The notes beneath the pieces are model-generated. The model worked only from the letters and a program-made list of their open reading frames with translations, was not told where the DNA came from and did no database searches. From contig CAXXHB010000003.1 of NCBI GenBank assembly GCA_963664815.2, positions 2,752,001 to 2,816,000 on the forward strand: 64,000 nucleotides of DNA, given 5' to 3'. This DNA is from Spirochaetota bacterium. Lineage in GTDB: Bacteria > Spirochaetota > UBA4802 > UBA5550. The stretch's first letter is position 1. Each line of letters starts with the position of its first letter. The position numbers were made by a program, and so were the translations under genes. Of the stretch, positions 6,039 through 29,995 are shown in pieces.

Positions 6039-6068
6039 TTTTATTTGAGAAATATTTTTACAGTTTTA

Positions 6069-6644: not shown

Positions 6645-7496
6645 TTATATCTTCCTGAACCAATCTTCATCAATACTTACCTGCTCAATAAGCTCGGTTT
6701 TAACACCCAGAGACAGCTCTTTCAGCTTCTCTGCCAGTTCATTCCCATCAATCAGATCAATAGGTGGTGCACCATCTCTCTGTGCCTCTTTAATCGCATC
6801 GCGAGTAAAAGAACCTGTGGTAATAAACAACCCCTTATCAGCCCTACCCTGCAAAGCTCCGCGAAAATCCCTTATATCTCTTGCAGCAACAACACCCTTA
6901 TACCTTTTACATTGAAATAACACATGGAAGCTGAGTAAGCCGCCGATTTTCATTATACCTTTACCATCAATTCCGCCATCTCCGCTTTTACCTGTGACTT
7001 CAACCTGGGTAAAACCTGACTCTCTTAGTAACCTCTGTGTTAATCTTTCAAATTGTGACGGTTCAATAGAAAGAAGAACTTCATTCAGGTGATCAATCCA
7101 GGTCGTTCTTTCATTAATTTCAGTTTCTGTATCCTGTAGCTGTTCTTCAAGTTTTTCGGTTGTCTTATCTTTAGATTCTTTTTCTCTTATAGCTTTTACG
7201 ACTTCTTTAGGATCAATAACAATAGGTTTATCTTTTATTTCAATCAGGGACCAAATACCTCTGGCAGAATTTTCAAGGAGTCCATATTTCTTTAAATATG
7301 TTTTTGTCCATGCAAGGCGATAATCAACTTCAGACATTGAACCGCTTTTACCATGAGGTATTTCAATAATAGAGTCAGGTAATGACATCAACTCAACAGT
7401 TTTGTTATTAATCTCTTCAATTGTTCCGGAACCGCCAAGCAGATGGAGTGCCTGAAGCAGTGGATTCATCATGCTATCATATGTTGGAATTTCCAC
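6645..7496 (-). CDS. mrr: Mrr type IV restriction endonuclease
   Basis: Mrr_N (PTYD...YRLAWTKTYLKKYGLLE) plus Mrr_cat (GDGGIDG...QCKRY...GLFITT). Confidence 0.93.
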   Translation of the reverse strand: MEIPTYDSMMNPLLQALHLLGGSGTIEEINNKTVELMSLPDSIIEIPHGKSGSMSEVDYRLAWTKTYLKKYGLLENSARGIWSLIEIKDKPIVIDPKEVVKAIREKESKDKTTEKLEEQLQDTETEINERTTWIDHLNEVLLSIEPSQFERLTQRLLRESGFTQVEVTGKSGDGGIDGKGIMKIGGLLSFHVLFQCKRYKGVVAARDIRDFRGALQGRADKGLFITTGSFTRDAIKEAQRDGAPPIDLIDGNELAEKLKELSLGVKTELIEQVSIDEDWFRKI

Positions 7497-7651
7497 AGTA
7501 TAACCCTTCCTTATTGAATCAAGAAATATAATTAACTTCTATATTTTACAAGTTTTTTATAAAAAGATTAATTTAATTGCTGGTTAAATGTTCGTATTTT
7601 TAATATAGTTTCAGCTTAAGAATTAAAAGGATACCGGCTAATAATAATTAA

Positions 7652-8963
7652 CTTGAGTTAGGCGTTTTTTTAAAAGAAAAAAGATAATGGGGCAAAAAAT
7701 AGTATTAATTTTTTACCCCATTATGAATAGTATTTTAAAAACTCTAATGAATAAAAAAATAAACAACAGATTACAGAAGACAAGTATTTTACAGCGGCGA
7801 AAGAAATTTTTTCAAAACCGCAAATGAGGCATTTTACTAAGATGCTGAAAGGGATAATAGAATATGATGGTCGTCATACAATCTCAAGTATCAACTCCAT
7901 TCAGGTTGACACAAGAGATGTTAGTAATGATATAAAGTTTATAAGAGATACAGCTTGGACCTGTAAAGATCTTTTAAGAGTTAACAGGAATTTTTTAAAA
8001 TGTATCGCTAAGAAAAACGGGACAGGCTTTTTAATAATAGATGATACTGTGATAGAGAAGCCGGGAAAACCGAAGAAGATAGAAAGTCTCGGGTGGCATT
8101 ATTCTCATTCAAAAGGCAGAACGGTATATGGTCACAGCTTGGTGACAAGTCATTATAGATCAGGGGATATATCTTTCCCATATGATTTCCGGTTTTATCT
8201 AAATGAGAAAGTGGCAACTGAATCCGGAGAAGTATTTAAAACAAAACCGGATATAGCATGTGAATTGATAGATAAGTTTGAACCTTTTACGGGAGATAAG
8301 ATATACTGTTTAGTAGATAGCTGGTACACATCGGAGAAAGTCGTAAAAGCTGTAAAAGACCGGGAATTTGAACTTATAGGAGCGCTTAAGAGCAATAGAG
8401 TATTCCAGTTTAAAGAGCATGGTAAAAAACATAAGCTGTCAGCTTATGTGAAAAACTTAAGAAACTCATCCTTTGAGAAAGTAAAATTAAAGGATGAAGC
8501 CTTCAAAGTCAGACGGATAGAAGTCTGGCTGAAAGGTATCGGTAATGCAATTATACTGATATCAAAGAGAGTCAAGGACGGATCTATAATGTTCATCCTT
8601 AGTACGGATATGAACTTGAATAATGAAGGCATCTTGAAATATTACAGCTTTCGCTGGGATATTGAAGTTGGATATCTTTATTGTAAAGATCGTCTTGGTA
8701 TGAGTCAATACCAGATGAGGAAACTGAAGGCAATAGAAAAATACTGTGCTCTTGTATTTGCTGCGTATGCTTTACTTGAATCATTGAGAGTTGCTAACAA
8801 TGAACAGAGTCTTGGGAAATCTCGACAGTATTTCAAAATAATGAAGAAGCGGGAGTACGTTGATCAAGTGATTATAATGCATAAAAAGGGTGTCTCCAAG
8901 AGGGACATTTATAAAAAACTAAAACTCATGGCGTAGCTATGTCCAAAAAACGCCTAACTCGAG
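7652..8963 (+). mobile_element. IS701-like insertion sequence
   Basis: TIRs CTTGAGTTAGGCGTTTTTT / AAAAAACGCCTAACTCGAG; flanking direct repeat TAATTAA at 7645-7651 and 8964-8970. Confidence 0.9.
7824..8936 (+). CDS. DDE transposase (IS701/IS4-like)
   Basis: LIIDDTVIEK, LVDSWY and RWDIE...K..LG motifs; frame is open upstream to ~7755. Confidence 0.9.
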   Translation: MRHFTKMLKGIIEYDGRHTISSINSIQVDTRDVSNDIKFIRDTAWTCKDLLRVNRNFLKCIAKKNGTGFLIIDDTVIEKPGKPKKIESLGWHYSHSKGRTVYGHSLVTSHYRSGDISFPYDFRFYLNEKVATESGEVFKTKPDIACELIDKFEPFTGDKIYCLVDSWYTSEKVVKAVKDREFELIGALKSNRVFQFKEHGKKHKLSAYVKNLRNSSFEKVKLKDEAFKVRRIEVWLKGIGNAIILISKRVKDGSIMFILSTDMNLNNEGILKYYSFRWDIEVGYLYCKDRLGMSQYQMRKLKAIEKYCALVFAAYALLESLRVANNEQSLGKSRQYFKIMKKREYVDQVIIMHKKGVSKRDIYKKLKLMA

Positions 8964-9069
8964 TAATTAATTGTGATGAAAGATATACCCATATTAAAAA
9001 TTCGACATTTTATGTTAAGGTATATTGTGTTTGATCCAAAAATCTGGTCTGCAAGCTCGGTTACTGCTT

Positions 9070-9273: not shown

Positions 9274-9461
9274 TTAATCATTTTACTTTTCAGGGCCTTA
9301 TCTTTTGGAACAGTATTCTGTTGTTTTTTTAATTTAGCTGTACCTTTATTCCAGAAATCAAGCTCTTCTGCAACAGACATATTTTTTATCTCATTATAAA
9401 TCATTTCCTGAGATTTTCTTTTCATCTCCACACAATCAAACTTTTTATTCTTCATAATCAA
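9270..9461 (-). CDS. Small putative antitoxin, partner of the PIN protein
   Basis: KKFDCVEMKRK...IYNEIKNMS..EEL pattern, overlapping the PIN gene end. Confidence 0.65.
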   Translation of the reverse strand: MIMKNKKFDCVEMKRKSQEMIYNEIKNMSVAEELDFWNKGTAKLKKQQNTVPKDKALKSKMIK

Positions 9462-9904
9462 TTACCTCCGCAGGGGAATTTATAAAAATATCTTTATAGC
9501 CATTTATCCGGTTAACTGTATTATATAAGGCTATTTTGTCATAGTGAACAATATGTTTAAAATTCCAGCTTACAATTATATCGCAATTTGATACAGTTGC
9601 TATTACAACATGAAGAGCCTCATCCATATATTTCCGGCTAACAATATTATTTATAAGATACTCATCTCTCAACGACAGGCAGTTGATGTCAACTTCAAGT
9701 ATTTCACAATACTGAAGCAATTCATTATATAAATTGATAACTGTCTCCGGAGCTTTTTCAATCTCACTGCTTACTAATACCAATGTACACGGAATAATTT
9801 ACACTCTTTATCTCATTAATCAATTTATCTGTTCGTTCCATGAATTCATCATCAAACATACCTCCTATTACCGAGGTATCAAGATAGATTCTTAGTTTTT
9901 TCAT
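9445..9904 (-). pseudogene. PIN-domain toxin, frameshifted at ~9800
   Basis: ATG 9904 MKKLRIYLDTSVIGGMFDDEF...; a one-base shift joins ...DEALHVVIATVSNCDIIVSWNFKHIV. Confidence 0.8.
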
Positions 9905-9954
9905 ATGCTACCTTTAATCTTCTTTTTGATGTTAAGACATTAAATTTATCCATC

Positions 9955-10057
9955 GTCTGAACCTTGATTCTCATGATTACAGGATTAGCAGGATTTGCCA
10001 GCCGGTACCGGAAACCGAATCATGAAAATCCTTTAATCCTTAAATCATGGTTCGGAC
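9955..10057. repeat. Long imperfect palindrome (GTCTGAACC...GATT/AATC...GGTTCGGAC)
   Basis: Terminal inverted repeats with internal GATT/AATC arms; left arm resembles the composite-repeat leader. Confidence 0.75.
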
Positions 10058-10194
10058 TTTTTCCAGCAGAAATTCAGGTGCCAGTACTGTTTACCTCATT
10101 GCGTACTCATAATCAGGAAGTAATTCAGGATGTTGTTTTTGTAAATGTTCATACCTCTCATCAGTTAATATGACATTACAACCAGACCCTGAAT

Positions 10195-10512
10195 CTACAT
10201 TATTTTTACACCCTCTTTCTTAACTATTCCTATAAGCGGCGAACCTGTATCATCTCTAAAACGTCTGCTACCTACTGCCACAGGTTCAATCCTTGGATCA
10301 ACTTTTACTGTATATATCCAGGGGCGTGATAAAATCGAATCATCATCCGTATCAAATATATCCGATACAAGCATTACGTCAATGTCACTATTGATGCTGT
10401 CTTCTCCGCGCGCGCAGCTCCCGTAAATATATACATGTTCAATGTTTAACCCTTTATCATTTAATACGTGAATATATTTTTTAACTACTGATTCAATTTC
10501 CGCTTTAACCAT
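10195..10512 (-). CDS. Minimal nucleotidyltransferase (MNT) antitoxin
   Basis: YIYGSCARG...SDIDVMLV motif. Confidence 0.85.
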   Translation of the reverse strand: MVKAEIESVVKKYIHVLNDKGLNIEHVYIYGSCARGEDSINSDIDVMLVSDIFDTDDDSILSRPWIYTVKVDPRIEPVAVGSRRFRDDTGSPLIGIVKKEGVKIM

Positions 10513-10868
10513 TCTATCTCCTCCGAAGTCCTTTTGTAATACTGCAATACTGGTGCCTGGTCTGGTATGCGACCTGCATTATCCGGGTATCTTCCTGTTA
10601 TCTGATATTTCATAAGAATAGCATAAAATGTCATCTGTTCTTCTGTAAGTTCTATGCCGCACAATTCACACAGGTAAAGAAGATTATGGGTCTTTGGAGC
10701 AAAATCATCTTTTGTTTTTACATATAAAGCTTTGAGAATTTTCTCCATGGCAAGATGGCAGAAGAATAGACCATGCAGAAACCTTTCTTTTTCAATAAGG
10801 ATTTGCGCGGTATAGAAATCTTCACCGGAACCATCGAGCCAGTATTTTACTTGAAGTTCTTTATTCAT
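10485..10868 (-). CDS. HEPN domain protein
   Basis: FFCHLAMEKILKA...PKTHNLLYL...RYP. Confidence 0.85.
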   Translation of the reverse strand: MNKELQVKYWLDGSGEDFYTAQILIEKERFLHGLFFCHLAMEKILKALYVKTKDDFAPKTHNLLYLCELCGIELTEEQMTFYAILMKYQITGRYPDNAGRIPDQAPVLQYYKRTSEEIEWLKRKLNQ

Positions 10869-10872
10869 GCTT

Positions 10873-11067
10873 TTACCTATAAAATATCAATGAACATCGT
10901 CCAATCTCCTGTTCTTTAAATGCCAGATAAGATTTTAATGCCTTTTCTGCACACTGCTGTGTATGATAAATCGCGATATCATATAGAGGTTTTGATGCGT
11001 TCATCAGGATTTCAGCTGAATCGAGATCATTCCCGGCTTTAAACAGCCATTCTTCATGTGGCTTCAT
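10873..11067 (-). pseudogene. Truncated HEPN domain protein
   Basis: WLFKAGNDL...YHTQQCAEKALKSYL, ends at 64 aa without the THDL...RYP half. Confidence 0.75.
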
Positions 11068-11383
11068 ATAATTTCACTCCGCGATTTATCACTTTGTGGG
11101 CAAGAGTTGACGGATGATCTTTTTTTGTTTTTATCTCTTCTTCTGTATAAACAAGTATATCAACAGCTACATTCAAATCAAGAAGCTCTCTCTGCCCGAT
11201 CCTGATCCGGTCAGCACTGCCGAGTTTGGAATTTTTTACCACTATGAAAATATCGTAATCACTATTCAACTCCGGTGTTCCCCATGCGTAAGAACCGAAT
11301 AGATAGATTGTCTCAGGATGATATATTTTCACAAGTCTTGCAGTAATTTCTTTTATAATAGATTCGCTGTCAGTCATATGCAC
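11054..11383 (-). CDS. Minimal nucleotidyltransferase (MNT)
   Basis: IYLFGSYAWG...SDYDIFIV...VDILVYT. Confidence 0.88.
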   Translation of the reverse strand: MHMTDSESIIKEITARLVKIYHPETIYLFGSYAWGTPELNSDYDIFIVVKNSKLGSADRIRIGQRELLDLNVAVDILVYTEEEIKTKKDHPSTLAHKVINRGVKLYEAT

Positions 11384-11602: not shown

Positions 11603-12964
11603 TTAAGAAGAAAATACATGTTTAATAAAATCATTAAAATATTCAGCACAGTAATTCTTATCTTTTACAGACTTTTCAATATCAAATGGCCAGAGCATCA
11701 ATGGAATACCATTGATATCATTATACCTGAGGTATACAGGTTTACTAAATTTTTCATTTCCAGGATAAATTAAAATCATTCGTAATGCTATGTCTTGATC
11801 AGTAATTACTGATGACTCATATATCTTCGCGTAAGATAAAAGCTGGTACATGTCAGCCTGGGAAACGCCGTATTTATTTCTCCTGTCGCTGCCGTCAATG
11901 ATCTTCCATTTCGTATCCATAATATAAAATGTATTATCTGCAGAAGCAGTTATATCAGGTACTACCTGAAAAATCCCTTTTCCATTTTCCTCCGCAAGAT
12001 ACTTCTCACTGCTCTGCGCTTTAATACCATCAAACAGCCCGCTCTGCCGTAGAACAGAAGTAATATAGCTTTCAAAAACTTCATTCATGGGGAAGAGTAT
12101 GGCATTAACTCTGCCGTTCCCCTTCCAGTTGGTGAAACTCTCTCCCTGCAGAAAAACTCTACACCATTTAAACACCGTGTCATAATGTTTCATCAACCTG
12201 TTGTTCACGCACCTGCTGAAATCGCCTTTTATATCAGAAGATTCACTGACGTCATCGAATATGAACACCAGTTCGCGGAGCTTTTTTATATTGTCATTGT
12301 TACCCGATGTTTTAAGGAGAAGTGACAGAGTTGACTTAATGAGCCTGTTCTCAGGCCTGTCGCGGATAAAGTCATCGTACTCTATATAGAACCGTTCTTT
12401 ATGTACTATATTTTTCTTTATATGGTCATTGATGCGGAGCTTACCCTTTAAAATCTTCGAGTTCTCCTCCATTGTGATGTATCCTGACCTTATTCCCTGA
12501 CGCACAAGCTCATTCATCTCATTAATAAACAGGTGGATGAATATCTCCATGATATGCATTTTGTATGTTGCAATGTCAGATTCATTAAATTGTTTGAAAG
12601 GTGAATCCTTCACAGTACGGAGCATTCGAAGGAAGAGCCTGCGGGTATCAGGAACACTCTCCTCCTCTTCTCTTTTTTCTCTATGAATTTTGGGGAGTAT
12701 CTCAACAACAAGACCTGAATCTGTCTGGATTACACCAACATAATTTTTTACCTGAAGGCAGCGGCCAATACCTTTTTTATGTGTAAGAGAAAAAAAATCA
12801 CTCCCTTCACTAACCGAATTACCGGAATTGCGGAGAACGAAATCTTCCAGGTTATTGTAATCCTGCTTTTTTATGTAAAGCACACCATCATGCTCCTTCT
12901 CTGCAATTGAAGGAGCAATTACACCGTATTCACGGATTGTATGATTGTAAATTTTATGGTGCAT
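11603..12964 (-). CDS. mcrC: McrC-family restriction nuclease subunit
   Basis: NYVGVI, EILPKI, FPMNEVFESY, PDI...DTKWK, ADMYQLLSY motifs. Confidence 0.92.
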   Translation of the reverse strand: MHHKIYNHTIREYGVIAPSIAEKEHDGVLYIKKQDYNNLEDFVLRNSGNSVSEGSDFFSLTHKKGIGRCLQVKNYVGVIQTDSGLVVEILPKIHREKREEEESVPDTRRLFLRMLRTVKDSPFKQFNESDIATYKMHIMEIFIHLFINEMNELVRQGIRSGYITMEENSKILKGKLRINDHIKKNIVHKERFYIEYDDFIRDRPENRLIKSTLSLLLKTSGNNDNIKKLRELVFIFDDVSESSDIKGDFSRCVNNRLMKHYDTVFKWCRVFLQGESFTNWKGNGRVNAILFPMNEVFESYITSVLRQSGLFDGIKAQSSEKYLAEENGKGIFQVVPDITASADNTFYIMDTKWKIIDGSDRRNKYGVSQADMYQLLSYAKIYESSVITDQDIALRMILIYPGNEKFSKPVYLRYNDINGIPLMLWPFDIEKSVKDKNYCAEYFNDFIKHVFSS

Positions 12965-13482: not shown

Positions 13483-16350
13483 TTATTTCAAATTCCCTGA
13501 ATATATTTTAATAAACGCCTCAACATCAATACTGCAACCATTTAATTCAGGATTGATCCTGTAGGTTACCCGGTCTTCGTAGTTTTCATGGTCAAAACCC
13601 AGTACAGCCTTTTCACTGAAGTTCCTGCTCTGGATGAACCTTGTTCTGTTTATATTATCCTCAAAGGATGCGGTATCTTTCTCCCCGCCATTCAACTGTT
13701 TATAATGATCACCCAGCACCATCTGTATCTTCTCCCAGTCTTCGTAAAAGTACTCCTGAAGAAGCGGGATTATTCTTGTAGAGAAGATTGAACATAATTC
13801 TTTATATTTTTTTTCATCATTAAGTTCATTGTTTTTAAGTTTTATAAAATAAGCATGACCGATTGTATGGTCGCGGTCATATAGGAACTCAATGCGTTCG
13901 TTTATCTTAGAGAGCATCAATCTAATGTTAATAGCAGAACCATTTCTCATAATAATCAAATCGGATTCATTTTGAATAGAAGGATTTGACTTAACTATGT
14001 TTTTATATTCTTCTTCTTTTTCTTTATCATCAACAGTATTTAACAACTCCGGTTCCGGCATCATCTCTACAAAAGTAAACCGGCGGCGAAGAGCCGTGTC
14101 CATGAGCGCTATGGAGCGGTCTGCAGTGTTCATTGTACCGATTATGTAGAGGTTTGAGGGTACGCCGAACTTCTCTTTTGAATACGGAAGTGTTACTGTA
14201 AGTTCGTTTTCTGCTCCAAGGCGTTTGTCATCTTCAATGAGAGTTATTAACTCTCCGAAGATTTTGGAGATGTTGCCGCGGTTTATTTCGTCGATGATGA
14301 GTACAAAGGGTTTGATTTCACCTGCTGATTCATCTGTTGAAATCAGACTTTTAATATTATTCATGTTTAAATCTTTTTTATAAAACTCATATATTGTCTG
14401 CTGCGAAAATAATTTATTATTCATGATCTGGTCAACAGGGATTATTGCATCCTTGTATAACCATTCAACATTTCGATAATGCTTAAAATCAATTGGTCTT
14501 GAATTATCAAAAAAATAATTACCTGTAACTTTACCTATAGCACTTACTTTATGATTACCTGATGAAATGATGACAATGTCATTAATCTTCATCCAGTTCT
14601 TAAAGCGATCAACTGCCTGTGTGGGGTATGTCCTGTCATCCTTTTCGTCAGAGTATAGCTTATCGATATCCGCTTTTGTATCGGCATTACTGAAATCTAT
14701 GCTTCTGCCATATCCCATCGCTATTACATTGTTATAAAAACAATATCTTGCAATATCATCACCATCATCCTGGCTGTTGCCAAGCGACATCTTAAAGAAA
14801 TTTATACTATTCTCATCGAAATCATATACTGCCGTTTTTGAAGTACTTCTGATTTTTGCTCTTGTGCAGATTGATTTAAATACACCATCATCCATGATAT
14901 ATTTTAACTTATCTGCCACTGAATCCGATAAATCCGGTTTTATCCCCTCAATAAATTCTTCATAAGAAAAAGACTGATGGAATGTTATAAAATCGATCTG
15001 ACCTGAGTCTTTCAGTTCATTATAACGCTTAACAACATCGTCTCTGACTTCACTGCACTGACCATCAATTATCTCAACAGCCTTATTGATCACATTATAT
15101 GTTTTACCTGTACCGGGAGGGCCATAGAGGATCGTGTTCAAAGAAAGTTTAGAATTCGCCTCTTTATTATTCATAGCATCCTCAATCTGTTCTTTTTTAT
15201 AATATGATGGTATGGGAAGTGTAACACCAAGTGTTTTACCTACATACTCAACAAAGTCTGCATCGTGATTCTCCCGCCCTTTATGAGGCTTAGCTGCTCG
15301 CTCGATAAACCTGAAGTGTGCCTGTTTTGTTATTTCATATATTTCAGGTACATCACTTATATCAAGATCGAGTGAATAATTATTTTCTCTGGGAGGTACA
15401 CTGGGAACTTCCCAGTTAGTTTTGTATTGATTTATTTTTTCCAGCGTATTTGCATCAAGTGCCGGTTTATCAAGCACCAGGGCGGAGGGTTCATTTTTTC
15501 TTATACATATACACCAGGGCTGACCTGTGTTTAAATAAAACCTGTCGCTTAATAATCGGACATTCCATCCCGCAGGAGCAGAATCATTTGCTTTGATTAT
15601 AGATTCAGAAAAACACTTCAGGATTTTCAAATGTAATTGTTTATCAGGTATTATTGAGTTTAGAATCTTTTCTATTTGGGAATTGGTCTTATTCTGTTTT
15701 CTGTTCCATGCATCATATGAAATCTCTTCAAAACTATTACCATTAAACTTATTTTTAACAAATTTCATCAATTCATAATATTTACGGTAATCAAGTTTAT
15801 CAAAGTCTTCCCCGGTGTATTCCTTCATTACACTGTCAAGGCTCAGGTATTTATCAGGCATTATCCAGAAGAGTCCGATTGTAATATTTATTCTTACACC
15901 TTTTATACTAAGTACACTGTTAAATGTATTTTCAGTAATACCTGAAATAACTGCTTCTCTGAATAACTGCCAGAGGAGTTTAATATCATTCTCACCGCGT
16001 TCATACTTATATGCAAAAAGCCATGACTTCTGGTTTGTCATTACAGGTATCCCATTGAAATCGGCTGGTACTTCAGAGTTGAGTTTAAAAATATTTTTCA
16101 GTTCCGCAAGGATCTGCTTCCGGTTATCATTAGTAATCCCGCGATTGAAACTTGAATAAAAAGTAAACGGATCGATCTCTCTGAGTTCCGATGTTTCATT
16201 CATTGACGGTTTATCCTGCATCGGTATCATGGGGATGCCAGTTGTTGTTATCTTTTTGATTATATCAAGGAGATCGCCCTGCCTGTTCTCGTAATCAATG
16301 AGTTTAAGAGAAAGCTCTTTATATATCGGTATCCATGTGAAGTTTGACAT
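13483..16350 (-). CDS. mcrB: McrB-family AAA+ GTPase with extended N-terminus and inserted domain
   Basis: GPPGTGKT, ITFHQSFSYEEF, IIDEINRGN, GTMNTADRS, ALRRRF. Confidence 0.93.
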   Translation of the reverse strand: MSNFTWIPIYKELSLKLIDYENRQGDLLDIIKKITTTGIPMIPMQDKPSMNETSELREIDPFTFYSSFNRGITNDNRKQILAELKNIFKLNSEVPADFNGIPVMTNQKSWLFAYKYERGENDIKLLWQLFREAVISGITENTFNSVLSIKGVRINITIGLFWIMPDKYLSLDSVMKEYTGEDFDKLDYRKYYELMKFVKNKFNGNSFEEISYDAWNRKQNKTNSQIEKILNSIIPDKQLHLKILKCFSESIIKANDSAPAGWNVRLLSDRFYLNTGQPWCICIRKNEPSALVLDKPALDANTLEKINQYKTNWEVPSVPPRENNYSLDLDISDVPEIYEITKQAHFRFIERAAKPHKGRENHDADFVEYVGKTLGVTLPIPSYYKKEQIEDAMNNKEANSKLSLNTILYGPPGTGKTYNVINKAVEIIDGQCSEVRDDVVKRYNELKDSGQIDFITFHQSFSYEEFIEGIKPDLSDSVADKLKYIMDDGVFKSICTRAKIRSTSKTAVYDFDENSINFFKMSLGNSQDDGDDIARYCFYNNVIAMGYGRSIDFSNADTKADIDKLYSDEKDDRTYPTQAVDRFKNWMKINDIVIISSGNHKVSAIGKVTGNYFFDNSRPIDFKHYRNVEWLYKDAIIPVDQIMNNKLFSQQTIYEFYKKDLNMNNIKSLISTDESAGEIKPFVLIIDEINRGNISKIFGELITLIEDDKRLGAENELTVTLPYSKEKFGVPSNLYIIGTMNTADRSIALMDTALRRRFTFVEMMPEPELLNTVDDKEKEEEYKNIVKSNPSIQNESDLIIMRNGSAINIRLMLSKINERIEFLYDRDHTIGHAYFIKLKNNELNDEKKYKELCSIFSTRIIPLLQEYFYEDWEKIQMVLGDHYKQLNGGEKDTASFEDNINRTRFIQSRNFSEKAVLGFDHENYEDRVTYRINPELNGCSIDVEAFIKIYSGNLK

Positions 16351-16368: not shown

Positions 16369-17412
16369 TTATAAATCAATATCGTAATGTTCTTTATACT
16401 TAATCTTCACTACATCTCTTAACTCATCACTAAACTTTCTGAAACCATCGGTATTATCTTCATATTCATAATGACGAAGATGAGTAAAATCGAAAGGTAC
16501 ATCATTCATATTTTGCGTCATATGAATGCATGGTTTACTGATCGCATGGGCAATACCTAATTCGTACATGACATTCGGATTACGACCTGTTACATCTGCT
16601 ATAATGAGGCCTGCCTGGTTTATTTGAGTCCAGATATCTTCAATTACAATTTGTCCTTTAAGATTATCTGCTCTTAAACATTGAAGATTCAGAGACTCCA
16701 CATTTTCCCTGATCAACTCCTTGTATACACGGTCAGACCAAGGCTGGGTAAACGGCATCAGAACAAAGCATATCATTTGGGTTATTTGAGGTACATCGGA
16801 TCTGAAATATAGATTATTGTTAGCTTGACTAACTGTTTTTACTACTGGATTTGACTTTTCTTTGACTGTTTTATTAGATGTATCATGATCATCTAAAAAC
16901 TTTTTAATTTTCTTTTCAATACCGTCAAATTGGTAATAAGTATTAAAAGAATTATAAACAGCTATTGATTCAAAAACATTTGGTTGATTATTCACATATT
17001 TAGACTGCTGAAAATATTCACCAAATACATTATTTATGAGATTTAAAAAAAGAGTTATTTCGGCTGGTTCAATCGATATGTCTTTTGATAATCCGGTAAT
17101 ATCAATGTCGTTTAAAGAATTATCAGCTAATAATTGATCTCGTATAGCAAATACGATTTTATCAACTTTCTCCAAAATATCAGAATTCGGATCAATCAAT
17201 AGTATACCAGGTATAGAAATTGATGTGAAATTACCAGCGCGCAGTGGATATGGAATTAATTCCGGATTAAAATCTTTTGATATCATATTCCAGAGTTTTG
17301 ATCTAATTATTCTATTATCTGCTCTTTCTCCGGCAAGCGAAAGTTCATATACAGTTTTTAACCACAATCCCTGGTCATGATCTAAATTATAATTTGATAA
17401 ATCTATCGGCAT
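16369..17412 (-). CDS. Protein with C-terminal nucleoside 2-deoxyribosyltransferase/TIR-like domain
   Basis: CFVLMPF...RAD...IADVTGRNPNVMYELGIAHA...VPFD. Confidence 0.75.
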   Translation of the reverse strand: MPIDLSNYNLDHDQGLWLKTVYELSLAGERADNRIIRSKLWNMISKDFNPELIPYPLRAGNFTSISIPGILLIDPNSDILEKVDKIVFAIRDQLLADNSLNDIDITGLSKDISIEPAEITLFLNLINNVFGEYFQQSKYVNNQPNVFESIAVYNSFNTYYQFDGIEKKIKKFLDDHDTSNKTVKEKSNPVVKTVSQANNNLYFRSDVPQITQMICFVLMPFTQPWSDRVYKELIRENVESLNLQCLRADNLKGQIVIEDIWTQINQAGLIIADVTGRNPNVMYELGIAHAISKPCIHMTQNMNDVPFDFTHLRHYEYEDNTDGFRKFSDELRDVVKIKYKEHYDIDL

Positions 17413-17413
17413 A

Positions 17414-19243
17414 TTATTTACTATCCTTTTTTTCTTTTAAAGCCGGTATCATATCTCGCCATATTTCCGGTGGTAACGGTGAATTATTTTTAATACACCC
17501 GAGAATTTTCACAGACAGAGGCAAGCCACTCATATCTTCCCACGGAAATTGTTTTCTCATTTTATCAATTAAATCAAAGATAGCTTCGTTTATTGAAACA
17601 TCTTCACCAGATATTTTATTGAAATTCAACGTTGATATAGCGATTCCATCTTTAACAGAATTTTTAATAACCCTATTACCCCAATCATCAGGAGGAACCC
17701 AACTTACTAAATCAATTTCGTCTACATCTGATAATTTCTTTCCATCACTACCAAGACCTTTTACAATTCTTGTATAATACCTGTTCATCAAATCACTTCG
17801 AACAGGCTCATCTAATGAAAAACATAATTCCATAATCATGAGCAACAAGTAAGAACTTCGATCTGAAAAATTGTATGGCCGCTCACCTGAAACTACATAT
17901 TCAATAAGAGCATCCATATTACTTCTAGATTCAACAAATGGTATGTCAACATTCTTGTCAAATCTTCGGACTAAAAGACGTGATTCTAATTCAGATAACC
18001 ATAGCTGTATCTCTTTGATATTTCCAGATTGATATAAAATAAACCAGATGAGAAACAATTCAACATGATGTAAATCGATCAGCGGTCTTAATGATGCAGG
18101 ATTAAGATGAAGACATTGTGTCAACCATTCTGATGATCTGTTTAAAACAGTTAAAATTAATTCTTTGTATTTTTTTTCATCACCAACCATAAATTCCATC
18201 GGTGCCATTGTAAAAATTCCGAGACGTCCAATATGCCAAAAAATCCTATAAGCATGATTTATAGCTGAAACCGAAAAAAAACTACCATCAGATGAAAAAC
18301 CATGCTGAGTTATATAAAGCTTATGATACTTAATGTGATACTTCTCTAATTCATTGATATAGAATTGCAGCCATATATTGATTACTTTATCTTCAAAAAT
18401 TTTATCAGATTGAATTGATTGCCATAATTCTAGCATTGCCCATTCAATAAGATCAATCCAACCTGCATATGATATCTGTTCGTCTTTTTTATATTTTAAG
18501 AGAATTATCAAAGTGACAGGTATTAAATTCACCTTACGATCATCAAGTTTACCACTTAAAGCAATTTTTAAAAAATTCTTCCAATTAGGAATTAGCTGAT
18601 TATTCCATTCTTCAGAACTAAAGTTGAAATCATTATATTGGGAACATATATATAAAAAAGTGCCGTAAAGATGTTGAGGCATAATTTCTGGTGTTAATAG
18701 ATGCCCTACAACTTCGTCAACAATTCTCGTTAAATTCCATCTTATAAATTTTAATTCAATCTGATCATTTATCTTTTTAGGTAAATTATTTATTAGCCTA
18801 TTAAATAACTCTATTCCATTTGAATCTTCATCTTTGTTATATGTTAAAATTACATTAACAGTTTTGACTTTTTCTAAATCCTGGATTTGCATATCCGGAG
18901 AAGCTGCCATTCGAATATCAGAATCAAAGTTATGAGCTGTCCAATTTTTGTTATTAAGCACCTCATCTTTTAATACGAAAATAAACAATTCATCTTCCGA
19001 TTGACTTAAAAATGACATATCAATCCCAAACTCTGCTTCAGTTTTTGTTTTTGCAGCAATGGAATCAGATTGTCTTATGAAAGGTAATCTGACAGGAGAA
19101 TATCCCTTTATAAGGCATATCTGGTAAATTAACCAATCAAAACCCATTTTGAGATCACTTTTTTCCAGGCGAGTCCTTTCCAATAAACTCCCAATATAAT
19201 TTATTAAAAAAGGTTTAAATGAAAGAAGCTCCATGAAATTCAC
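17414..19243 (-). CDS. Hypothetical protein with N-terminal PD-(D/E)XK-like nuclease motif
   Basis: YIGSLLER...EFGIDMSF...FIFVLK; the rest is helical and unrecognised. Confidence 0.55.
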   Translation of the reverse strand: MNFMELLSFKPFLINYIGSLLERTRLEKSDLKMGFDWLIYQICLIKGYSPVRLPFIRQSDSIAAKTKTEAEFGIDMSFLSQSEDELFIFVLKDEVLNNKNWTAHNFDSDIRMAASPDMQIQDLEKVKTVNVILTYNKDEDSNGIELFNRLINNLPKKINDQIELKFIRWNLTRIVDEVVGHLLTPEIMPQHLYGTFLYICSQYNDFNFSSEEWNNQLIPNWKNFLKIALSGKLDDRKVNLIPVTLIILLKYKKDEQISYAGWIDLIEWAMLELWQSIQSDKIFEDKVINIWLQFYINELEKYHIKYHKLYITQHGFSSDGSFFSVSAINHAYRIFWHIGRLGIFTMAPMEFMVGDEKKYKELILTVLNRSSEWLTQCLHLNPASLRPLIDLHHVELFLIWFILYQSGNIKEIQLWLSELESRLLVRRFDKNVDIPFVESRSNMDALIEYVVSGERPYNFSDRSSYLLLMIMELCFSLDEPVRSDLMNRYYTRIVKGLGSDGKKLSDVDEIDLVSWVPPDDWGNRVIKNSVKDGIAISTLNFNKISGEDVSINEAIFDLIDKMRKQFPWEDMSGLPLSVKILGCIKNNSPLPPEIWRDMIPALKEKKDSK

Positions 19244-19250
19244 CTATGAC

Positions 19251-19901
19251 TTATTTATTGAATGAATAATTTTTTGTAATACTTCCAATTACTTTAAAAT
19301 GTTCAGACAATATGTCTTTGCATTCTTCATTACTTATTTGACCAGTCTCTATGAGAAGATGATATTTTTCATAGGATTCTAAAGTGATACTTTTTATTCT
19401 TTGTAAAGATTCATAGTATAATCGCACATCTTCATTCTTTTCCAAAATTTCCCAATTAGGGAACAACTTATCGCATAAAATATCTATATCCCATCTTTCA
19501 ATTGGACGTAGGAGTATACTTTCATCAATTACGTTTTCAAACTCAACTCTTTTAACTTCAAAGGTATTTATTGCACTTCTATTCCCTTCATCACCATTAT
19601 GAACTACTGTTACTGTTCTTTTCTTACTTTTGCATTCTTCATATTCCAAATCAATAAATAAAGCATCTTTCATTTGTTTAAGAATTCCATATTTTCCATC
19701 CAGATGCTCCTTAAGATTACCTGACTTTATTACGTAGCTACAGTAATCTCCAGTCGTTTCATTTTCCAATGCAACAACATCTTTACCTTGTTCTCCATAT
19801 CTACCTTTACTCGGTTTCATTAAAATTCTTTGACCAAGAATCAGATTCGTATAATCTATAATTAAGCTATCTAAAAATCCATCTTCTTTGATTGATGCCA
19901 A
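19251..19901 (-). CDS. Restriction-endonuclease-like protein, 5' end possibly disrupted
   Basis: LASIKE...LDSL...EQGKDVVA...YVIKSGNL...ERWD; ORF track uses a TTG start just after an in-frame TAA (19911-19913). Confidence 0.55.
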   Translation of the reverse strand: MASIKEDGFLDSLIIDYTNLILGQRILMKPSKGRYGEQGKDVVALENETTGDYCSYVIKSGNLKEHLDGKYGILKQMKDALFIDLEYEECKSKKRTVTVVHNGDEGNRSAINTFEVKRVEFENVIDESILLRPIERWDIDILCDKLFPNWEILEKNEDVRLYYESLQRIKSITLESYEKYHLLIETGQISNEECKDILSEHFKVIGSITKNYSFNK

Positions 19902-19952
19902 AAAGATTTTTTAAGTTTGTTTTAGATGCACCTGGTGAATAGATCATCCATA

Positions 19953-21866
19953 TCACCTTTTAGGCATTGACTTTATATGCAATTTTCTTAAAGCCATTCC
20001 TTCTGGATCTATGATCTCTAATCTGGGAAATTCAATAGATGTACTGAATTCTTTAAAATCAGATTTTTCACCAAGAGTCTTTTCATTAAGAATACTCCAG
20101 CTTGTTCCATAAAGGACTTCCGTACTTCGGGCTAAATTATAAAAAATTGATTTAGACTTTGAATCTTTTGAAACTTGTCCTGAAAATAACTGCATTTTTC
20201 TTTTTAAAGCCTTATCATATCCGGGAAATGAGAATGTTGATATAGTAAGCTCTGAATTAGATTTAAGATTATTAAAATAGTTATCTGAGATTTCAATTAT
20301 ATCTTTTAATAAAGAAGATGGTAAATCGATCTTCTTCCATCGTTCAAGACACTCACCCGGATAATTAAGAGCTTGAAGAGCCATTTCATTTTTAAAAATA
20401 CCTTGAAGTTCTTCATTAACATCACGGTAATATGGTTCAAGCATAAGTAAATAATCTGAAACTTGTTTGCTTAAAGTAGGGTAATTTATAAATTCATAGA
20501 TAATTAATTCGAGTATTGGCTCACTGACTTCAATTTGATTTATTGTTTGTTGTTTTTGTTCTGGCAAGATATTGTAAATTAAAAAACCAAATTTTCTCTT
20601 TTCAATTTCTCTCGAAAAAATATAGTTAGATAAAGATTGAATAAAACTTGATGAGATCACTTCATTTTTTAAATGATTAAAATGCTTACTAAACTTATCA
20701 CAAAAAACCATACAATCAACTAAAAGAACTTTATCTATGATATCTTTAAAATCATTTATATTATTTTTTAATCTATCGACTATATAATCCTCTAGTTGCA
20801 TCCATGTACCATTTTGGTCTTCAGGTAATGGCAACATCATCTCAATAAAAATATTTGCCTCTTTTACTGATATAGGCGAATTTGCAATGTTTTCTTTTGA
20901 CAACAAACGCCAGAAAAGATCTATGATATAATACTTTACTTTATCTGTTACAAACTTAGGTATTACTTTGTTATACCATATTTTTATGAATCTTAATAAT
21001 TCACTGTTCTGCTGATTTAACAAAAAACATCGATATAATGTAATAAAAGCTTCTTCATTTTCTGATATTTCACCATTCAACATATCATTAAGCTCGATAT
21101 CAAGTGATTGAATACTCAAAGCCCCAAGAATAAATGTATTAACTAATGACTTATAGTAACAAATTCTTAGTTGTATTTTATTAGAATGCTTAAGTTCACA
21201 ATCCCATTTATTAACATATTGCGCAATTTCAGAATCAGTTTCCTTTTTTGAGCGAAGTATGCCGAGGATTATTGATGCTAAACGTTGCCTTGTTATTTCA
21301 TTATTGATTGAAATTTCAGATAGATACTTTTCAAATACTAATTTTGAATTATTGCTCTCGTTTAGAACATAATTCTCAAAACCTTCATAAAATGGTCCAC
21401 CGGCTAAATCATTTTTTATACGTATTGCAAGATTATAAAACCAGCCAGAAGCAAAATCAGGTTCTAACTCGACTTCTTTACAAAAATCTGGAAGAATTTG
21501 AATAAATGTCCAAAAATCTATGCTTTCATTATTTAGGAGTAAATTTAATAATTGATGCTTCTCCGAAGGACTAATTCTGTTAAGACAATTATTCCATATT
21601 GCAAAAAGAAATTTCTTTGAAACAGAATTATATCCAATCAACAATTGTAATTTTTTAGCAGTTGAATAAAATGTTTCATTTATAGGAATTGATAACGGGA
21701 AAAGTTTAGAAGTAATCAAATCATAATCGTTTAAATTTAACAAATTGATCTCATCTTCAATTTCAGATCTTAATTCTTTGAAATGCTTTAGTGGTTCTTC
21801 CCAATCTCGCTTTTCTACGACTGCATCAATTACTTCTAATATTATTTTCATTACTAACACTATCAC
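19953..21866 (-). CDS. Large hypothetical protein, predicted alpha-helical
   Basis: 637-aa AT-rich ORF rich in L/I/E/K; C-terminal LNYPG...SIEFPRLEIIDPEG; no Walker A. Confidence 0.7.
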   Translation of the reverse strand: MIVLVMKIILEVIDAVVEKRDWEEPLKHFKELRSEIEDEINLLNLNDYDLITSKLFPLSIPINETFYSTAKKLQLLIGYNSVSKKFLFAIWNNCLNRISPSEKHQLLNLLLNNESIDFWTFIQILPDFCKEVELEPDFASGWFYNLAIRIKNDLAGGPFYEGFENYVLNESNNSKLVFEKYLSEISINNEITRQRLASIILGILRSKKETDSEIAQYVNKWDCELKHSNKIQLRICYYKSLVNTFILGALSIQSLDIELNDMLNGEISENEEAFITLYRCFLLNQQNSELLRFIKIWYNKVIPKFVTDKVKYYIIDLFWRLLSKENIANSPISVKEANIFIEMMLPLPEDQNGTWMQLEDYIVDRLKNNINDFKDIIDKVLLVDCMVFCDKFSKHFNHLKNEVISSSFIQSLSNYIFSREIEKRKFGFLIYNILPEQKQQTINQIEVSEPILELIIYEFINYPTLSKQVSDYLLMLEPYYRDVNEELQGIFKNEMALQALNYPGECLERWKKIDLPSSLLKDIIEISDNYFNNLKSNSELTISTFSFPGYDKALKRKMQLFSGQVSKDSKSKSIFYNLARSTEVLYGTSWSILNEKTLGEKSDFKEFSTSIEFPRLEIIDPEGMALRKLHIKSMPKR

Positions 21867-26382: not shown

Positions 26383-26422
26383 TTTTTTTCTTTCAATATG
26401 TTTTATGCATCATAAACAGGTG

Positions 26423-26574
26423 CCCTCACCCGGCCGTGCCTATCGACCGGCCACCCTCTCCCGTCTGCGGCGGGCGAGGGTTTTTATCTGCCAGAAACTG
26501 TTTCAGGTTAACTACCCTCTCCCGGCCGAAGGCGGGGAGAGGGTGCTCCAGCGTCAGCGTCGAGCGGGTGAGGG
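26423..26574. repeat. 152-bp palindromic cassette, copy 1
   Basis: Ends CCCTCACCCG / CGGGTGAGGG; internal hairpin CCCTCTCCCGGCCGAAGGCGGGGAGAGGG. Confidence 0.92.
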
Positions 26575-26581
26575 CGCATAT

Positions 26582-26917
26582 TCAGTTTATACAACCCTTA
26601 ATCCTTTCTAGCAGTATATTTATATCTCTGTTTACCTCATCATTAGTGACACGGATAAATCTTATACCTTCATCCTCAATAAGCATCTGCCTCAACTCGT
26701 CGTAATCTTTCTGTTTACTATGAACTGCTCCATCTATTTCTATCGCAAGCTTAAGTTCATGACAATAGAAATCCACCACAAAACCTTCAATCACATGCTG
26801 CCGCCTGAACTTCAGGTTCATAGATTTTCTGTTTCGCAAAGCCTCCCACACTTTGGATTCTTCCGGTGTCTGTTCCTTGCGTAACTCTCTGGCAAAAATT
26901 TTCTTTATGTATTTCAT
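26582..26917 (-). CDS. DUF559 (Vsr-like) endonuclease, copy 1
   Basis: ARELRKEQTPEE...KFRRQH...VDFYC...IEIDG..H. Confidence 0.9.
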   Translation of the reverse strand: MKYIKKIFARELRKEQTPEESKVWEALRNRKSMNLKFRRQHVIEGFVVDFYCHELKLAIEIDGAVHSKQKDYDELRQMLIEDEGIRFIRVTNDEVNRDINILLERIKGCIN

Positions 26918-26944
26918 AAAACTGTCTCTGTTTTTAAACCAGCA

Positions 26945-27096
26945 CCCTCACCCGGCCGTGCCTATCGACCGGCCACCCTCTCCCGTCTGCGGCGAGCGAG
27001 GGTTTTTATCTGCCAGAAACTGTTTCAGGTTAACTACCCTCTCCCGGCCGAAGGCGGGGAGAGGGTGCTCCAGCGTCAGCGTCGAGCGGGTGAGGG
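26945..27096. repeat. 152-bp palindromic cassette, copy 2
   Basis: 522 bp from copy 1, near-identical. Confidence 0.92.
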
Positions 27097-27103
27097 CGCA
27101 TAT

Positions 27104-27439
27104 TCAGTTTATACAACCCTTAATCCTTTCTAGCAGTATATTTATATCTCTGTTTACCTCATCATTAGTGACACGGATAAATCTTATACCTTCATCCTCA
27201 ATAAGCATCTGCCTCAACTCGTCGTAATCTTTCTGTTTACTATGAACTGCTCCATCTATTTCTATCGCAAGCTTAAGTTCATGACAATAGAAATCCACCA
27301 CAAAACCTTCAATCACATGCTGCCGCCTGAACTTCAGGTTCATAGATTTTCTGTTTCGCAAAGCCTCCCACACTTTGGATTCTTCCGGTGTCTGTTCCTT
27401 GCGTAACTCTCTGGCAAAAATTTTCTTTATGTATTTCAT
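27104..27439 (-). CDS. DUF559 endonuclease, copy 2 (identical protein)
   Basis: Same 111-aa translation as 26582..26917. Confidence 0.9.
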   Translation of the reverse strand: MKYIKKIFARELRKEQTPEESKVWEALRNRKSMNLKFRRQHVIEGFVVDFYCHELKLAIEIDGAVHSKQKDYDELRQMLIEDEGIRFIRVTNDEVNRDINILLERIKGCIN

Positions 27440-27466
27440 AAAACTGTCTCTGTTTTTAAACCAGCA

Positions 27467-27618
27467 CCCTCACCCGGCCGTGCCTATCGGCCGGCCACCC
27501 TCTCCCGTCTGCGGCGAGTGAGGGTTTTTATCTGCCAGAAACTGTTTCAGGTTAACTACCCTCTCCCGGCCGAAGGCGGGGAGAGGGTGCTCCAGCGTCA
27601 GCGTCGAGCGGGTGAGGG
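27467..27618. repeat. 152-bp palindromic cassette, copy 3
   Basis: 522 bp from copy 2, a few substitutions. Confidence 0.92.
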
Positions 27619-27628
27619 CGCATACAGT

Positions 27629-29995
27629 TTAATCCATACTTAGTATTTCATGGATAAGCCCTTCACTCATCTTTTCCAGTTCCAGTATATCAGCTGTCAC
27701 CTCTTCAAGGCTTCTAAGCGGCTTATGCCTGTAAAAATACTTGTTAAAGCTGATCTCATAGCCAATCTTTGTGGCATCAAGATTTATCCATGCCTCTGCC
27801 ACATGGGGTTTTACTTCCCGCAGAAAGTATTCATAAATGTTTTCTTTCAAGGGTACATTCTCTGTATCACGCAGGTCACTTTCAGTTTCATACTCAAGGT
27901 GTTCATCTTTAACTGAAGCGGGGTAATAACCGTAATCGGGCAACTCATCCTCTTTACAATCCAGGTGAGACAACAATTTATCCAGTTTATCACCGGTCAG
28001 TTTAACTTTACTCTTTACAACTATTTCAGCATCTGCATCGTACCAGCTTACAGCATTGAGTATTATGTTCTTCTCTGAAGCGGATAGTTTTGATTCAACA
28101 GCTTTTAAAGCTTCATCAACTTTATCTTTAAAAATATTAAAGTCGCTGTATTCATCTTTCCCTATCTTTTTCATAAGTGCAGTTGCAGTGTTCATCAAAT
28201 CAAGCTGCTTCTGCCATGTGGCAGGGCTGGTCAGGGTTTTGCTCTGCTTGGAATTAAGGTTAAGTTCATTTTTTTCGCACCAGTCAAGGATCTCTTTTTC
28301 GTGTTTATTAAGTTTGTTATAGACTTCATCACCAAAATTTTCATACGCCCATACCATGGGCTCACGAAGTGATTTATCAAAGCGGAGTTCCGCCATACGC
28401 TCTTTTGTAAACTGCGCTTTAAGCCTTTTGGGGCGTTCAATGGTTACTTTGTAATAACCAAAATCTGTATTATCAAAAATCTTTGAGGCAATACCCTCTT
28501 CGTCTATAGTATCTGGATTGATTTTCTTCTCAATATCCTTCATCTCTTTGTATACTGATACTATCTCACGGATATGTTCAGGAGCAAACTCACAATTCTT
28601 ATTGCCTAGGTTTTTGCGGAGTTTGCGGTACATCAGTCCTGCATCAATTAACTGCACCTTCCCTTTTCTGTTCTGTGCTTTTTTGTTAGTTACAATCCAG
28701 ATGTATGTGGTAATTCCTGTATTGTAAAACAGGTTGTTCGGCATTTGGATAATTGCATCGAGCCAGTCATTTTCTATGATATATCTTCGGATATTACTTT
28801 CACCGCCACCGGCATCTCCAGTAAACAGGCTACTGCCGTTATGGACAGAAGCAATCCTTGACCCGGAAGGATTCTGCGACAGCGGTTTCATCTTGTTAAC
28901 CATCTCCATAAGGAAAAGAAGCTGTCCATCAGAAGAACGAGGTGTGGCTTCCGCATCCTCCTCTACACCCCTGAAATCTTTAAGTTTTATCTTAAAACGG
29001 GGATCAATAATGTCTTTACCATCTTTGATATACTTTAAATCGCCTGCCCAGGATTTCCCGTATGGCGGGTTGGATAGCATAAAGTCAAAGGTCTTACCTG
29101 CAAATTCATCAGTTGCAAGTGTTGAACCAACCTTAATATTTTCCGGGTTATTACCCTTGATCATCATGTCAGACTTGCAGATAGCATAGGTCTCGTCGTT
29201 TATCTCTTTTCCAAAGAGGTAAACGTCACCCTTCGCGCGTATCTGGCCATCTTCGTCTTTAATAAAATTCTGAGATTCGGTAAGCATACCGCCGCTTCCG
29301 CAGGCCGGATCGTATATGGTAATAACAGGAGGAAGTTTTTTCTGTACAGGTTCAAAAATTATATGCGTCATTAGGTCAATTACTTCACGTGGGGTAAAGT
29401 GTTCACCTGCCTCCTCATTGTTCTCTTCATTGAATTTGCGGATTAGTTCTTCAAATACATATCCCATTCCAAGATTGGTCAGTGGCGGGAGTTTTCTTCC
29501 ATCCGGATCGTTCTTTTCAAATGGTGTGAGGTTAATATTAGGCGATGTGAATTTTTCAAGCACATTCAGCAGAACATCTTTCGACGCCATGTGCTGTACC
29601 TGGCTTTTAAGTTTAAACTTTTCAACAATCTCTTTAACGTTGCTGCTGAAACCGTTCAGGTAATCTACAAAATTTGCCTGCAGTATCTGCTGGTTGTTTG
29701 TAGCAGTGTCATGAAGACGCTGCAGAGTCCATTCACTGATATTGTAAAATACATAACCTGAAGCCTGTCTAAGTCCATTATCATCAAGTTCAATGAATTT
29801 AGCTTCATTCCTCTGAAAAGAAACCTCTTCCATTACGGCTTTTTTGGTCGGTTCAAGAAGGGCATCAAGTCTGCGGAGAACCACCATCGGAAGTATTACA
29901 TCACGGTATTTTCCCCTCACATATACATCACGAAGGCAGTCATCTGCAATAGACCAGATAAAAGATACGATTTTGTTATGTACGGCTATATTCAT
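27629..29995 (-). CDS. hsdM: Type I RM methyltransferase
   Basis: GEHFTPREV, YDPACGSGGML, NPPY motifs. Confidence 0.96.
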   Translation of the reverse strand: MNIAVHNKIVSFIWSIADDCLRDVYVRGKYRDVILPMVVLRRLDALLEPTKKAVMEEVSFQRNEAKFIELDDNGLRQASGYVFYNISEWTLQRLHDTATNNQQILQANFVDYLNGFSSNVKEIVEKFKLKSQVQHMASKDVLLNVLEKFTSPNINLTPFEKNDPDGRKLPPLTNLGMGYVFEELIRKFNEENNEEAGEHFTPREVIDLMTHIIFEPVQKKLPPVITIYDPACGSGGMLTESQNFIKDEDGQIRAKGDVYLFGKEINDETYAICKSDMMIKGNNPENIKVGSTLATDEFAGKTFDFMLSNPPYGKSWAGDLKYIKDGKDIIDPRFKIKLKDFRGVEEDAEATPRSSDGQLLFLMEMVNKMKPLSQNPSGSRIASVHNGSSLFTGDAGGGESNIRRYIIENDWLDAIIQMPNNLFYNTGITTYIWIVTNKKAQNRKGKVQLIDAGLMYRKLRKNLGNKNCEFAPEHIREIVSVYKEMKDIEKKINPDTIDEEGIASKIFDNTDFGYYKVTIERPKRLKAQFTKERMAELRFDKSLREPMVWAYENFGDEVYNKLNKHEKEILDWCEKNELNLNSKQSKTLTSPATWQKQLDLMNTATALMKKIGKDEYSDFNIFKDKVDEALKAVESKLSASEKNIILNAVSWYDADAEIVVKSKVKLTGDKLDKLLSHLDCKEDELPDYGYYPASVKDEHLEYETESDLRDTENVPLKENIYEYFLREVKPHVAEAWINLDATKIGYEISFNKYFYRHKPLRSLEEVTADILELEKMSEGLIHEILSMD

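Follow-up and report, generated by a model that had tools for sequence, protein, structure and literature searches.

A divergent Olokun gene pair with an optional third, nuclease-like gene, frameshifted in this copy, in a defence locus of a Spirochaetota bacterium

The genes described here lie in a window of 64,000 nucleotides (nt) from a Spirochaetota bacterium (assembly GCA_963664815.2, contig CAXXHB010000003.1, positions 2,752,001 to 2,816,000 of the forward strand), and all coordinates are counted from the first letter of that window. Between a type I hsdM-hsdS-hsdR operon and an mcrB-mcrC pair, the window carries four co-oriented open reading frames (ORFs) on the minus strand, encoding proteins of 637, 216, 609 and 347 amino acids (aa) (Table 1). 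Their G+C contents (28.1, 29.4, 31.0 and 31.7%, in that order) contrast with those of hsdR (40.7%), mcrB (35.9%) and the whole window (38.2%). An earlier interpretation made from the letters alone, referred to below as the sequence-only reading, had described these packed and AT-rich ORFs as one unnamed four-gene anti-phage module, and the coordinates, order and base composition on which it relied are all confirmed. The four ORFs are thus real, yet they are not one unnamed module, and the word unnamed is wrong for two of them: the 637- and 609-aa proteins match OloA and OloB, the subunits of the Olokun anti-phage system, in the PADLOC profile collection. The view of the region as a defence locus is upheld. 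A motif check found no Walker A motif in any of the four proteins, and promoter and terminator scans returned chance-level counts (58 against 47.7 +/- 6.9, and 3 against 4.0).

Table 1. Location of the four genes, of the frame slip in gene X and of other features of the window.
Feature	Coordinates	Strand	Basis
Four ORFs as called (637, 216, 609 and 347 aa)	21866-19953, 19901-19251, 19243-17414, 17412-16369	(-)	
oloA, divergent Olokun helical-repeat subunit	19953..21866	(-)	PADLOC PDLC03925, gene order
Gene X (provisional oloC), stand-alone OloB-type PD-(D/E)XK domain and C-terminal helical hairpin	19251..19947	(-)	Homologues, profiles, model
A6 and T5 runs where X slips one base	19900..19912	(-)	Three-frame translation against intact homologues
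oloB, divergent Olokun nuclease, intact: N-terminal PD-(D/E)XK domain (1-185) and helical domain	17414..19243	(-)	PADLOC PDLC03926
Unrelated neighbour (347 aa): uncharacterised N-terminal domain and NDT / N-glycosidase-like domain (YELG, E284)	16369..17412	(-)	Pfam, profiles, survey
McrB (955 aa)	13483-16350		
Tandem duplication between hsdM and hsdS	26413-27756		
Additional copy of the hairpin element	31528-31625		
Remnant of a second mcrC copy	2845-3356, 12382-12964		
Three clusters of a 43-bp repeat unit	269-499, 2609-2925, 5908-6052		
Insertion sequence; DDE transposase within it	7643-8972; 7824-8936		
Mrr gene	6645-7496		
Toxin-antitoxin-like cluster	9445-11383		

The PADLOC assignment of the 637/609-aa pair rests on the scores of hidden Markov models; numeric thresholds for calling a system are absent from the consulted passages of PMC9252829. 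The 637-aa protein matches the OloA profile (E 8.5e-16, 56.3 bits) through residues 106-633 and profile positions 74-591 of 596, that is, over 87% of the profile and 83% of the protein, and its closest homologues score 76-82 bits against the same profile. No adaptin match was found for it in a Pfam scan. It had been described earlier as helical and without an NTPase motif, and it does appear to be a helical, non-NTPase partner; judged from the starts of its homologues, the likelier start is ATG 21851, which would give 632 aa. The 609-aa protein matches the OloB profile (E 4.4e-21, 73.6 bits) through residues 66-599 and profile positions 38-554 of 556 (93%). Each half of OloB also matches this profile separately, as do all 21 of the homologue N-domain pieces tested. 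The AlphaFold2 model of OloB (predicted local distance difference test, pLDDT, 91) consists of an N-terminal alpha/beta restriction-endonuclease domain followed by helices, and its best structural matches are the catalytic domains of BspD6I, AF1548 and FokI (Z 8.7-9.3). Residues E22, D36, K67, D75 and K92 are invariant in 84 of 84 classified rows and D109 is found in 83 of them. The resident OloB has a non-acidic residue two positions before the lysine, and the same is true of two canonical members (FTIK). A plasmid match was not found for the window OloB, and Foldseek returned no match at E <= 0.001 for either the OloB model or that of gene X, discussed below. On this sequence evidence the 637- and 609-aa genes are assigned as divergent members of OloA and OloB.

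PMC10121019 names Millman et al. (2022, Cell Host Microbe) as the source of Olokun; the name is absent from the bioRxiv text 10.1101/2022.05.11.491447. A study of PfOlokun (bioRxiv 10.1101/2025.07.10.664194) describes a 2:2 assembly of OloA and OloB in which the nuclease domains lie next to each other. This complex is selective for phage DNA, degrading that of T7, SECphi17 and SPO1, and only nicks plasmid. The resident pair resembles Olokun in its helical OloA upstream of OloB, its combination of a PD-(D/E)XK with a helical domain, its lack of an NTPase motif, its defence-island setting and its nearly end-to-end matches to both PADLOC profiles. It differs in scoring about 6-8 times lower than typical members, in having proteins 30-50 aa longer and in insertions within the nuclease domain. 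Furthermore, part of this clade has a third gene, gene X, which goes unmentioned in the sections of the PfOlokun study that were consulted. The same study calls the helical domain of OloB N-terminal, whereas the nuclease motif is N-terminal both here and in the canonical sequences compared.

The distribution of gene X was determined by a survey of related loci. A locus search with a single sequence as query gave no loci and an alignment was required; that of 120 OloB homologues retrieved 46 genome and 79 metagenome loci (125), which form 98 clusters at 95% DNA identity. These relatives are found in Planctomycetota, Verrucomicrobiota, Ignavibacteria and others. The oloA gene lies upstream of oloB in 86 of the 87 clusters with room for it. 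The junction between the two is resolved in 86 of the 98 clusters; the genes abut in 72 and are separated by X in 14, while 11 further clusters are cut by a contig end and one holds an oloB remnant without oloA. The hosts of seven named X-bearing loci comprise one archaeon and bacteria from four named phyla. What follows oloB differs greatly from locus to locus (49 of 65 scanned), and no fixed methyltransferase neighbour was found at the related loci. Three individual loci may be singled out. A Methanosarcinales archaeal bin (L011:2774-7177) has a complete oloA-X-oloB set, which suggests cross-domain transfer of the three-gene form. At L034 the OloA homologue lies inside an open frame of 1124 aa, whose roughly 500 additional residues at the N-terminus may reflect a fusion. 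A Tolypothrix plasmid (L220:1-4777) carries a canonical Olokun with an ISAs1 element between oloA and oloB.

Gene X belongs to a small family, with 29 representatives at 50% identity, the window copy among them. Its intact homologues are 228-244 aa long, and most of them overlap both the stop codon of oloA and the start codon of oloB (intact three-gene examples are L047, L048 and L050); one broken copy has 207 aa. BLASTP of X against the window OloB gave nothing significant (best E 1.2), whereas hhalign aligned the X profile with the adjoining OloB nuclease domain at E 1.3e-5 and 1.9e-5 (probability 78-81%). Because BLASTP is blind to this likeness, profiles are needed to see it. By such profile comparison the N-terminal pattern that the sequence-only reading had noted in the 216- and 609-aa proteins is real, and the two proteins have homologous PD-(D/E)XK domains. 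The OloB profile is matched by 11 of 33 X family members (member 1 at positions 7-152), and the longer relatives that were found for X are all canonical OloB proteins (four of four, 419-451 bits). Atlas leads for X were limited to unnamed or Mrr-like proteins. In the model built for the intact L047 homologue (pLDDT 89), a long helical hairpin comes after the nuclease domain; the top matches, tied or nearly so, are the cleavage domain of FokI (Z 10.4), the small subunit of BspD6I (9.6), and AF1548 and MspJI (9.2). The putative catalytic residues are conserved at E22 (29/29), D/E27 (29/29), E53 and D57 (31/31), K75 (32/32) and, in a helix, D/E95 (29/33), the same constellation as in canonical OloB. 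An acid is missing two positions before the lysine; this occurs in two canonical OloB proteins too and is therefore no mark of a dead X. The ratio of nonsynonymous to synonymous substitution rates (dN/dS) is 0.12-0.27 for X in five pairs and 0.19-0.27 for OloA, and it indicates that X is under purifying selection.

Among 15 loci the X tree repeats the OloA and OloB groupings, and X distances track those of OloA (Spearman 0.79) and OloB (0.73), the OloA-OloB value being 0.84 (Mantel p 0.0005). On the OloB tree the X loci are confined to one side of a branch with a support of 100 (14 of 48 resolved rows, compared with 0 of 36 on the opposite side). Within that side, X-bearing rows are interleaved with X-less sisters, requiring nine changes, eight of which are forced by strong branches. 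These patterns indicate that X is optional and co-inherited with oloA-oloB, and one old gain followed by repeated loss would fit them best. Two further ideas about X were rejected: that it stands in for a dead OloB nuclease, as the catalytic residues are equal in 14 X-bearing and 70 X-less rows, and that an N-terminal extension of OloA tracks it (75 rows). The patchy presence of X, with its nine changes on the OloB tree, could also be expected of an independent solitary nuclease that was repeatedly inserted at the oloA-oloB junction and contributes nothing to the system. Against canonical OloB domains, moreover, X has a higher median score (30 bits) than the resident OloB domain (10 bits). Such an independent origin is nevertheless improbable, given that the X tree mirrors those of OloA and OloB, that all X loci fall on one side of the same strongly supported branch, and that 1,053 genome searches turned up no X elsewhere. 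More specifically, searches that started from X (301 + 401 + 351 genomes) found it only in the window and in four loci, each time between oloA and oloB, and a viral search found no X in viral contigs.

The origin of X may be sought in either of two sources. In a free tree X falls near four canonical OloB domains, with a Shimodaira-Hasegawa-like approximate likelihood ratio test (SH-aLRT) value of 84; those four had been retrieved with X's own profile. A tree that forces X together with the resident OloB domains has a log-likelihood 25.7 higher (approximately unbiased test, p-AU 0.79). Both duplication of the resident domain and capture from a canonical oloB therefore remain as candidate origins.

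In the window itself X is disrupted. Homologues of X start about 16 residues before the 216-aa ORF, with a P-x-x-S-K-x-x-L motif. Here that motif is encoded in another frame from ATG 19947, which directly follows the oloA stop, is preceded by a ribosome-binding-like site (AGGTGA) and begins a frame that ends after 26 codons. X is open only from 19901; the slip falls near codon 13-16, the first ~15 codons being in another frame, and the profile match across the site contains an internal TAA. The 216-aa ORF thus lacks a true start, and from the frame slip in the A6/T5 runs the window X is likely a pseudogene, or at most a product of TTG-19901 without the first helix. Because X is frameshifted, the system in this genome probably acts in the ordinary two-gene form. 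Two run contigs over the slip site are identical to the window and gap-free; one is possibly the source of the window, and the other, with a different study code, has a depth of 2. From two other runs, no contig among those listed covers the site. An assembly error behind the frameshift was judged unlikely, as the two spanning contigs agree with the window. A decaying three-gene locus is also seen at L083:3366-5714 (and L081), where some 300 bp of other sequence interrupt X close to the 3' end and OloB has just 469-484 aa.

The fourth ORF has a different distribution. The C-terminus of the 347-aa protein matches Pfam PF05014 at E 7.6e-5, under the curated cut-off, and 80 of 89 homologues match the same family; the NDT/TIR-like ending proposed earlier is upheld in its NDT-like form by this family. 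The PADLOC profile Effector TIR matches residues 256-321 only (E 3.2e-9), and a match to the Rcl/DNPH1 N-glycosidase is weak (E 0.005). The glutamate of the YELG motif, E284, is invariant in 89 of 89 homologues. Atlas gave nothing useful for the N-terminal domain (0.76). In this glutamate and in the weak Rcl/DNPH1 match the protein resembles NDT or Rcl-type N-glycosidase effectors (PF05014; retron Ec86 effector). It differs in its uncharacterised N-terminal domain and in having no adjoining retron, cyclase or Thoeris gene and no link to Olokun. Among the 22 window ORFs scanned there was no cyclase, ThsB-type TIR or reverse transcriptase.

With a profile built from the 89 homologues, no ORF of the 347-aa family or its NDT domain was found in any of the 125 Olokun loci, even though 75 of the 98 clusters, 10 three-gene ones included, have at least 1150 bp downstream and hence room for the gene. 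A search of 401 genomes gave four strong matches to the family, two of them full length, and both full-length relatives are solitary, surrounded by housekeeping genes and lacking any Olokun gene within ~8 kb. Nor is a cyclase, ThsB-type TIR or reverse transcriptase evident from ORF starts around these two relatives, where no Pfam scan was made. A viral search with the 347-aa alignment returned 80 loci, matched in the NDT domain only. From its absence at the 125 loci and its solitary relatives, the 347-aa gene appears to be a passenger, and it is probably a stand-alone defence or conflict gene. The four ORFs might otherwise be seen as a joint system made up of a helical sensor, a pair of nucleases and an effector of the NDT/TIR kind, as the sequence-only reading proposed. 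Their close spacing (1 bp separates oloB from the 347-aa gene), their similar low G+C and their placement inside a restriction-modification island speak for this arrangement. It is nevertheless very improbable: the homologues do not co-occur (0 of 125 loci for the 347-aa gene), an outcome that the sequence-only reading had itself named as refuting, X itself is optional (14 of 86 resolved junctions), the gene downstream of oloB varies highly in the 49 loci scanned, and the full-length 347-aa relatives are solitary in two of two cases. What stands of that model is the helical partner and the two homologous nuclease domains; the nucleotide-cleaving effector does not. The NDT domain of the 347-aa family (57-64% identity) was also observed in PF02190 proteins (P0237, P0238, P0240 and P0241), two of which are labelled Lon protease-like.

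The locus is accordingly read as a divergent Olokun pair from a lineage that often carries a third gene, X, which would be an optional extra cutting subunit; in this genome X is frameshifted and the 347-aa gene is a passenger. The probability given to this reading is roughly 0.6. If PfOlokun is a guide to this clade, OloA would scaffold OloB, and the paired nuclease domains would cut phage DNA. X may then dock on the OloAB complex through its helical hairpin or a nuclease dimer surface and, by analogy with the BspD6I small subunit, could add a further active site for a second-strand cut or a wider target range. In class III heterodimeric type IIS enzymes (BspD6I/BstNBI, BsrDI, BtsI), as described in PMC3017599, a small gene next to that of the large subunit specifies a homologue of the large subunit's catalytic domain; the small subunit is active only in the complex, where it cuts the second strand and turns a nickase into a double-strand cutter. 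X is similar in being a small gene homologous to its neighbour's catalytic domain, and its model superposes on the BspD6I small subunit with a root-mean-square deviation of 4.1 over 135 residues (Z 9.6). It differs in having neither a sequence-specific recognition domain nor a methyltransferase partner, its partners being OloA and OloB. The structural likeness holds at the level of the superfamily, with FokI and MspJI matching equally well, and offers an analogy for the action of X rather than membership. More tentatively, a deep Olokun lineage may have turned a duplicated or captured OloB catalytic domain into a third subunit, OloC, that would convert a nicking-prone OloAB into an efficient double-strand cutter or widen its phage range, and that has been kept or dropped repeatedly, now by frameshift in this genome.

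X could act without cutting, as a regulator or decoy that pairs with the OloB nuclease domain and damps its activity, like an antitoxin, or tunes activation. X is similar to the domain that pairs with itself in the 2:2 complex as predicted, its translation is coupled to that of the genes on either side, oloA and oloB, and at a helix position where the resident OloB almost always has D, X has Q, S or E. Such a role is unlikely, however, because the putative catalytic residues are retained in X and because a needed inhibitor should not be lacking in 72 of 86 loci, nor vanish in 8-9 places of the OloB tree with no change in OloB. The frequency with which X has been lost makes an inhibitory function less likely.

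Several observations weigh against the reading of the locus as a divergent Olokun pair with an extra cutting subunit. The Olokun profile scores are low, at 56 and 74 bits compared with 357-652 for canonical members (357-359 for two on OloA), and local alignments with canonical OloB show only about 20-25% identity; for both reasons the pair is treated as a divergent clade. The nuclease domain of the resident OloB has clade-specific insertions and a shifted helix acid (D109), and its function could therefore have diverged. X is dispensable, the catalytic residues of the resident OloB being the same with or without it, and no N-terminal difference in OloA follows it (75 rows). The window's own X has no OloB-profile match, 22 of 33 family members missing it as well, and dN/dS reaches 0.54 in the most distant pair. 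Finally, all four of the loci found by starting from X were already known via OloB, which makes that test a weak one.

The divergence of the pair bears on whether it is a functional Olokun or a distinct, homologous system with another trigger and target. The identity of about 20% to canonical members, the long branch on which the nuclease domain sits, an insertion of 9 residues and a basic loop, both lacking in canonical OloB, would all accord with a distinct system. So would the occurrence of relatives in Planctomycetota, Verrucomicrobiota, Ignavibacteria and other groups rather than in the tested Pseudomonas host. The odds of this are nonetheless considered low, as both profiles are matched co-linearly over their full length, gene order and near-overlap are those of canonical pairs, and the C-terminal PxxW-type ending and the nuclease motifs align with canonical sequences.

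A three-gene form of Olokun was not found in the literature searched; the 2022 journal paper and the bioRxiv supplements (system tables) may list such loci. Olokun has been tested and its mechanism is poorly understood, and the three-gene form with its close X-less sisters would allow a direct test of active-site number and target range. If the proposed reading is true, these loci form a natural matched set, with two genes or with three, for dissecting Olokun cutting and recognition. Because current profiles give this clade weak scores and mostly fail to detect X, the system is liable to be missed or annotated as hypothetical. The value is limited by the fact that the core system was already known, by the optional nature of X and by the disruption of this particular copy.

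Other features of the window lie outside the four genes. In McrB, a domain that matches PADLOC PDC-S02 (residues ~517-676) is inserted within the AAA+ domain. Between hsdM and hsdS, a 522-bp tandem duplication has produced two identical 111-aa DUF559 (Vsr-like) genes, each accompanied by a G+C-rich hairpin element of 98 nt; a further copy of this element occurs elsewhere in the window. Another copy of mcrC survives as a remnant, with one stretch of 300 nt (99% identity to the intact mcrC) and one of 99 nt (90%), 9.5 kb away. The three clusters of a 43-bp repeat unit include inverted copies, and a 37-nt element is common to five places; these are intergenic repeats resembling repetitive extragenic palindromes or bacterial interspersed mosaic elements (REP/BIME-like). 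A DDE transposase gene flanked by 28-nt inverted repeats forms an apparently intact insertion sequence that adjoins the Mrr gene. Downstream of mcrC, a nucleotidyltransferase (MNT) gene, a HEPN gene and a small unassigned ORF make up a toxin-antitoxin-like cluster.

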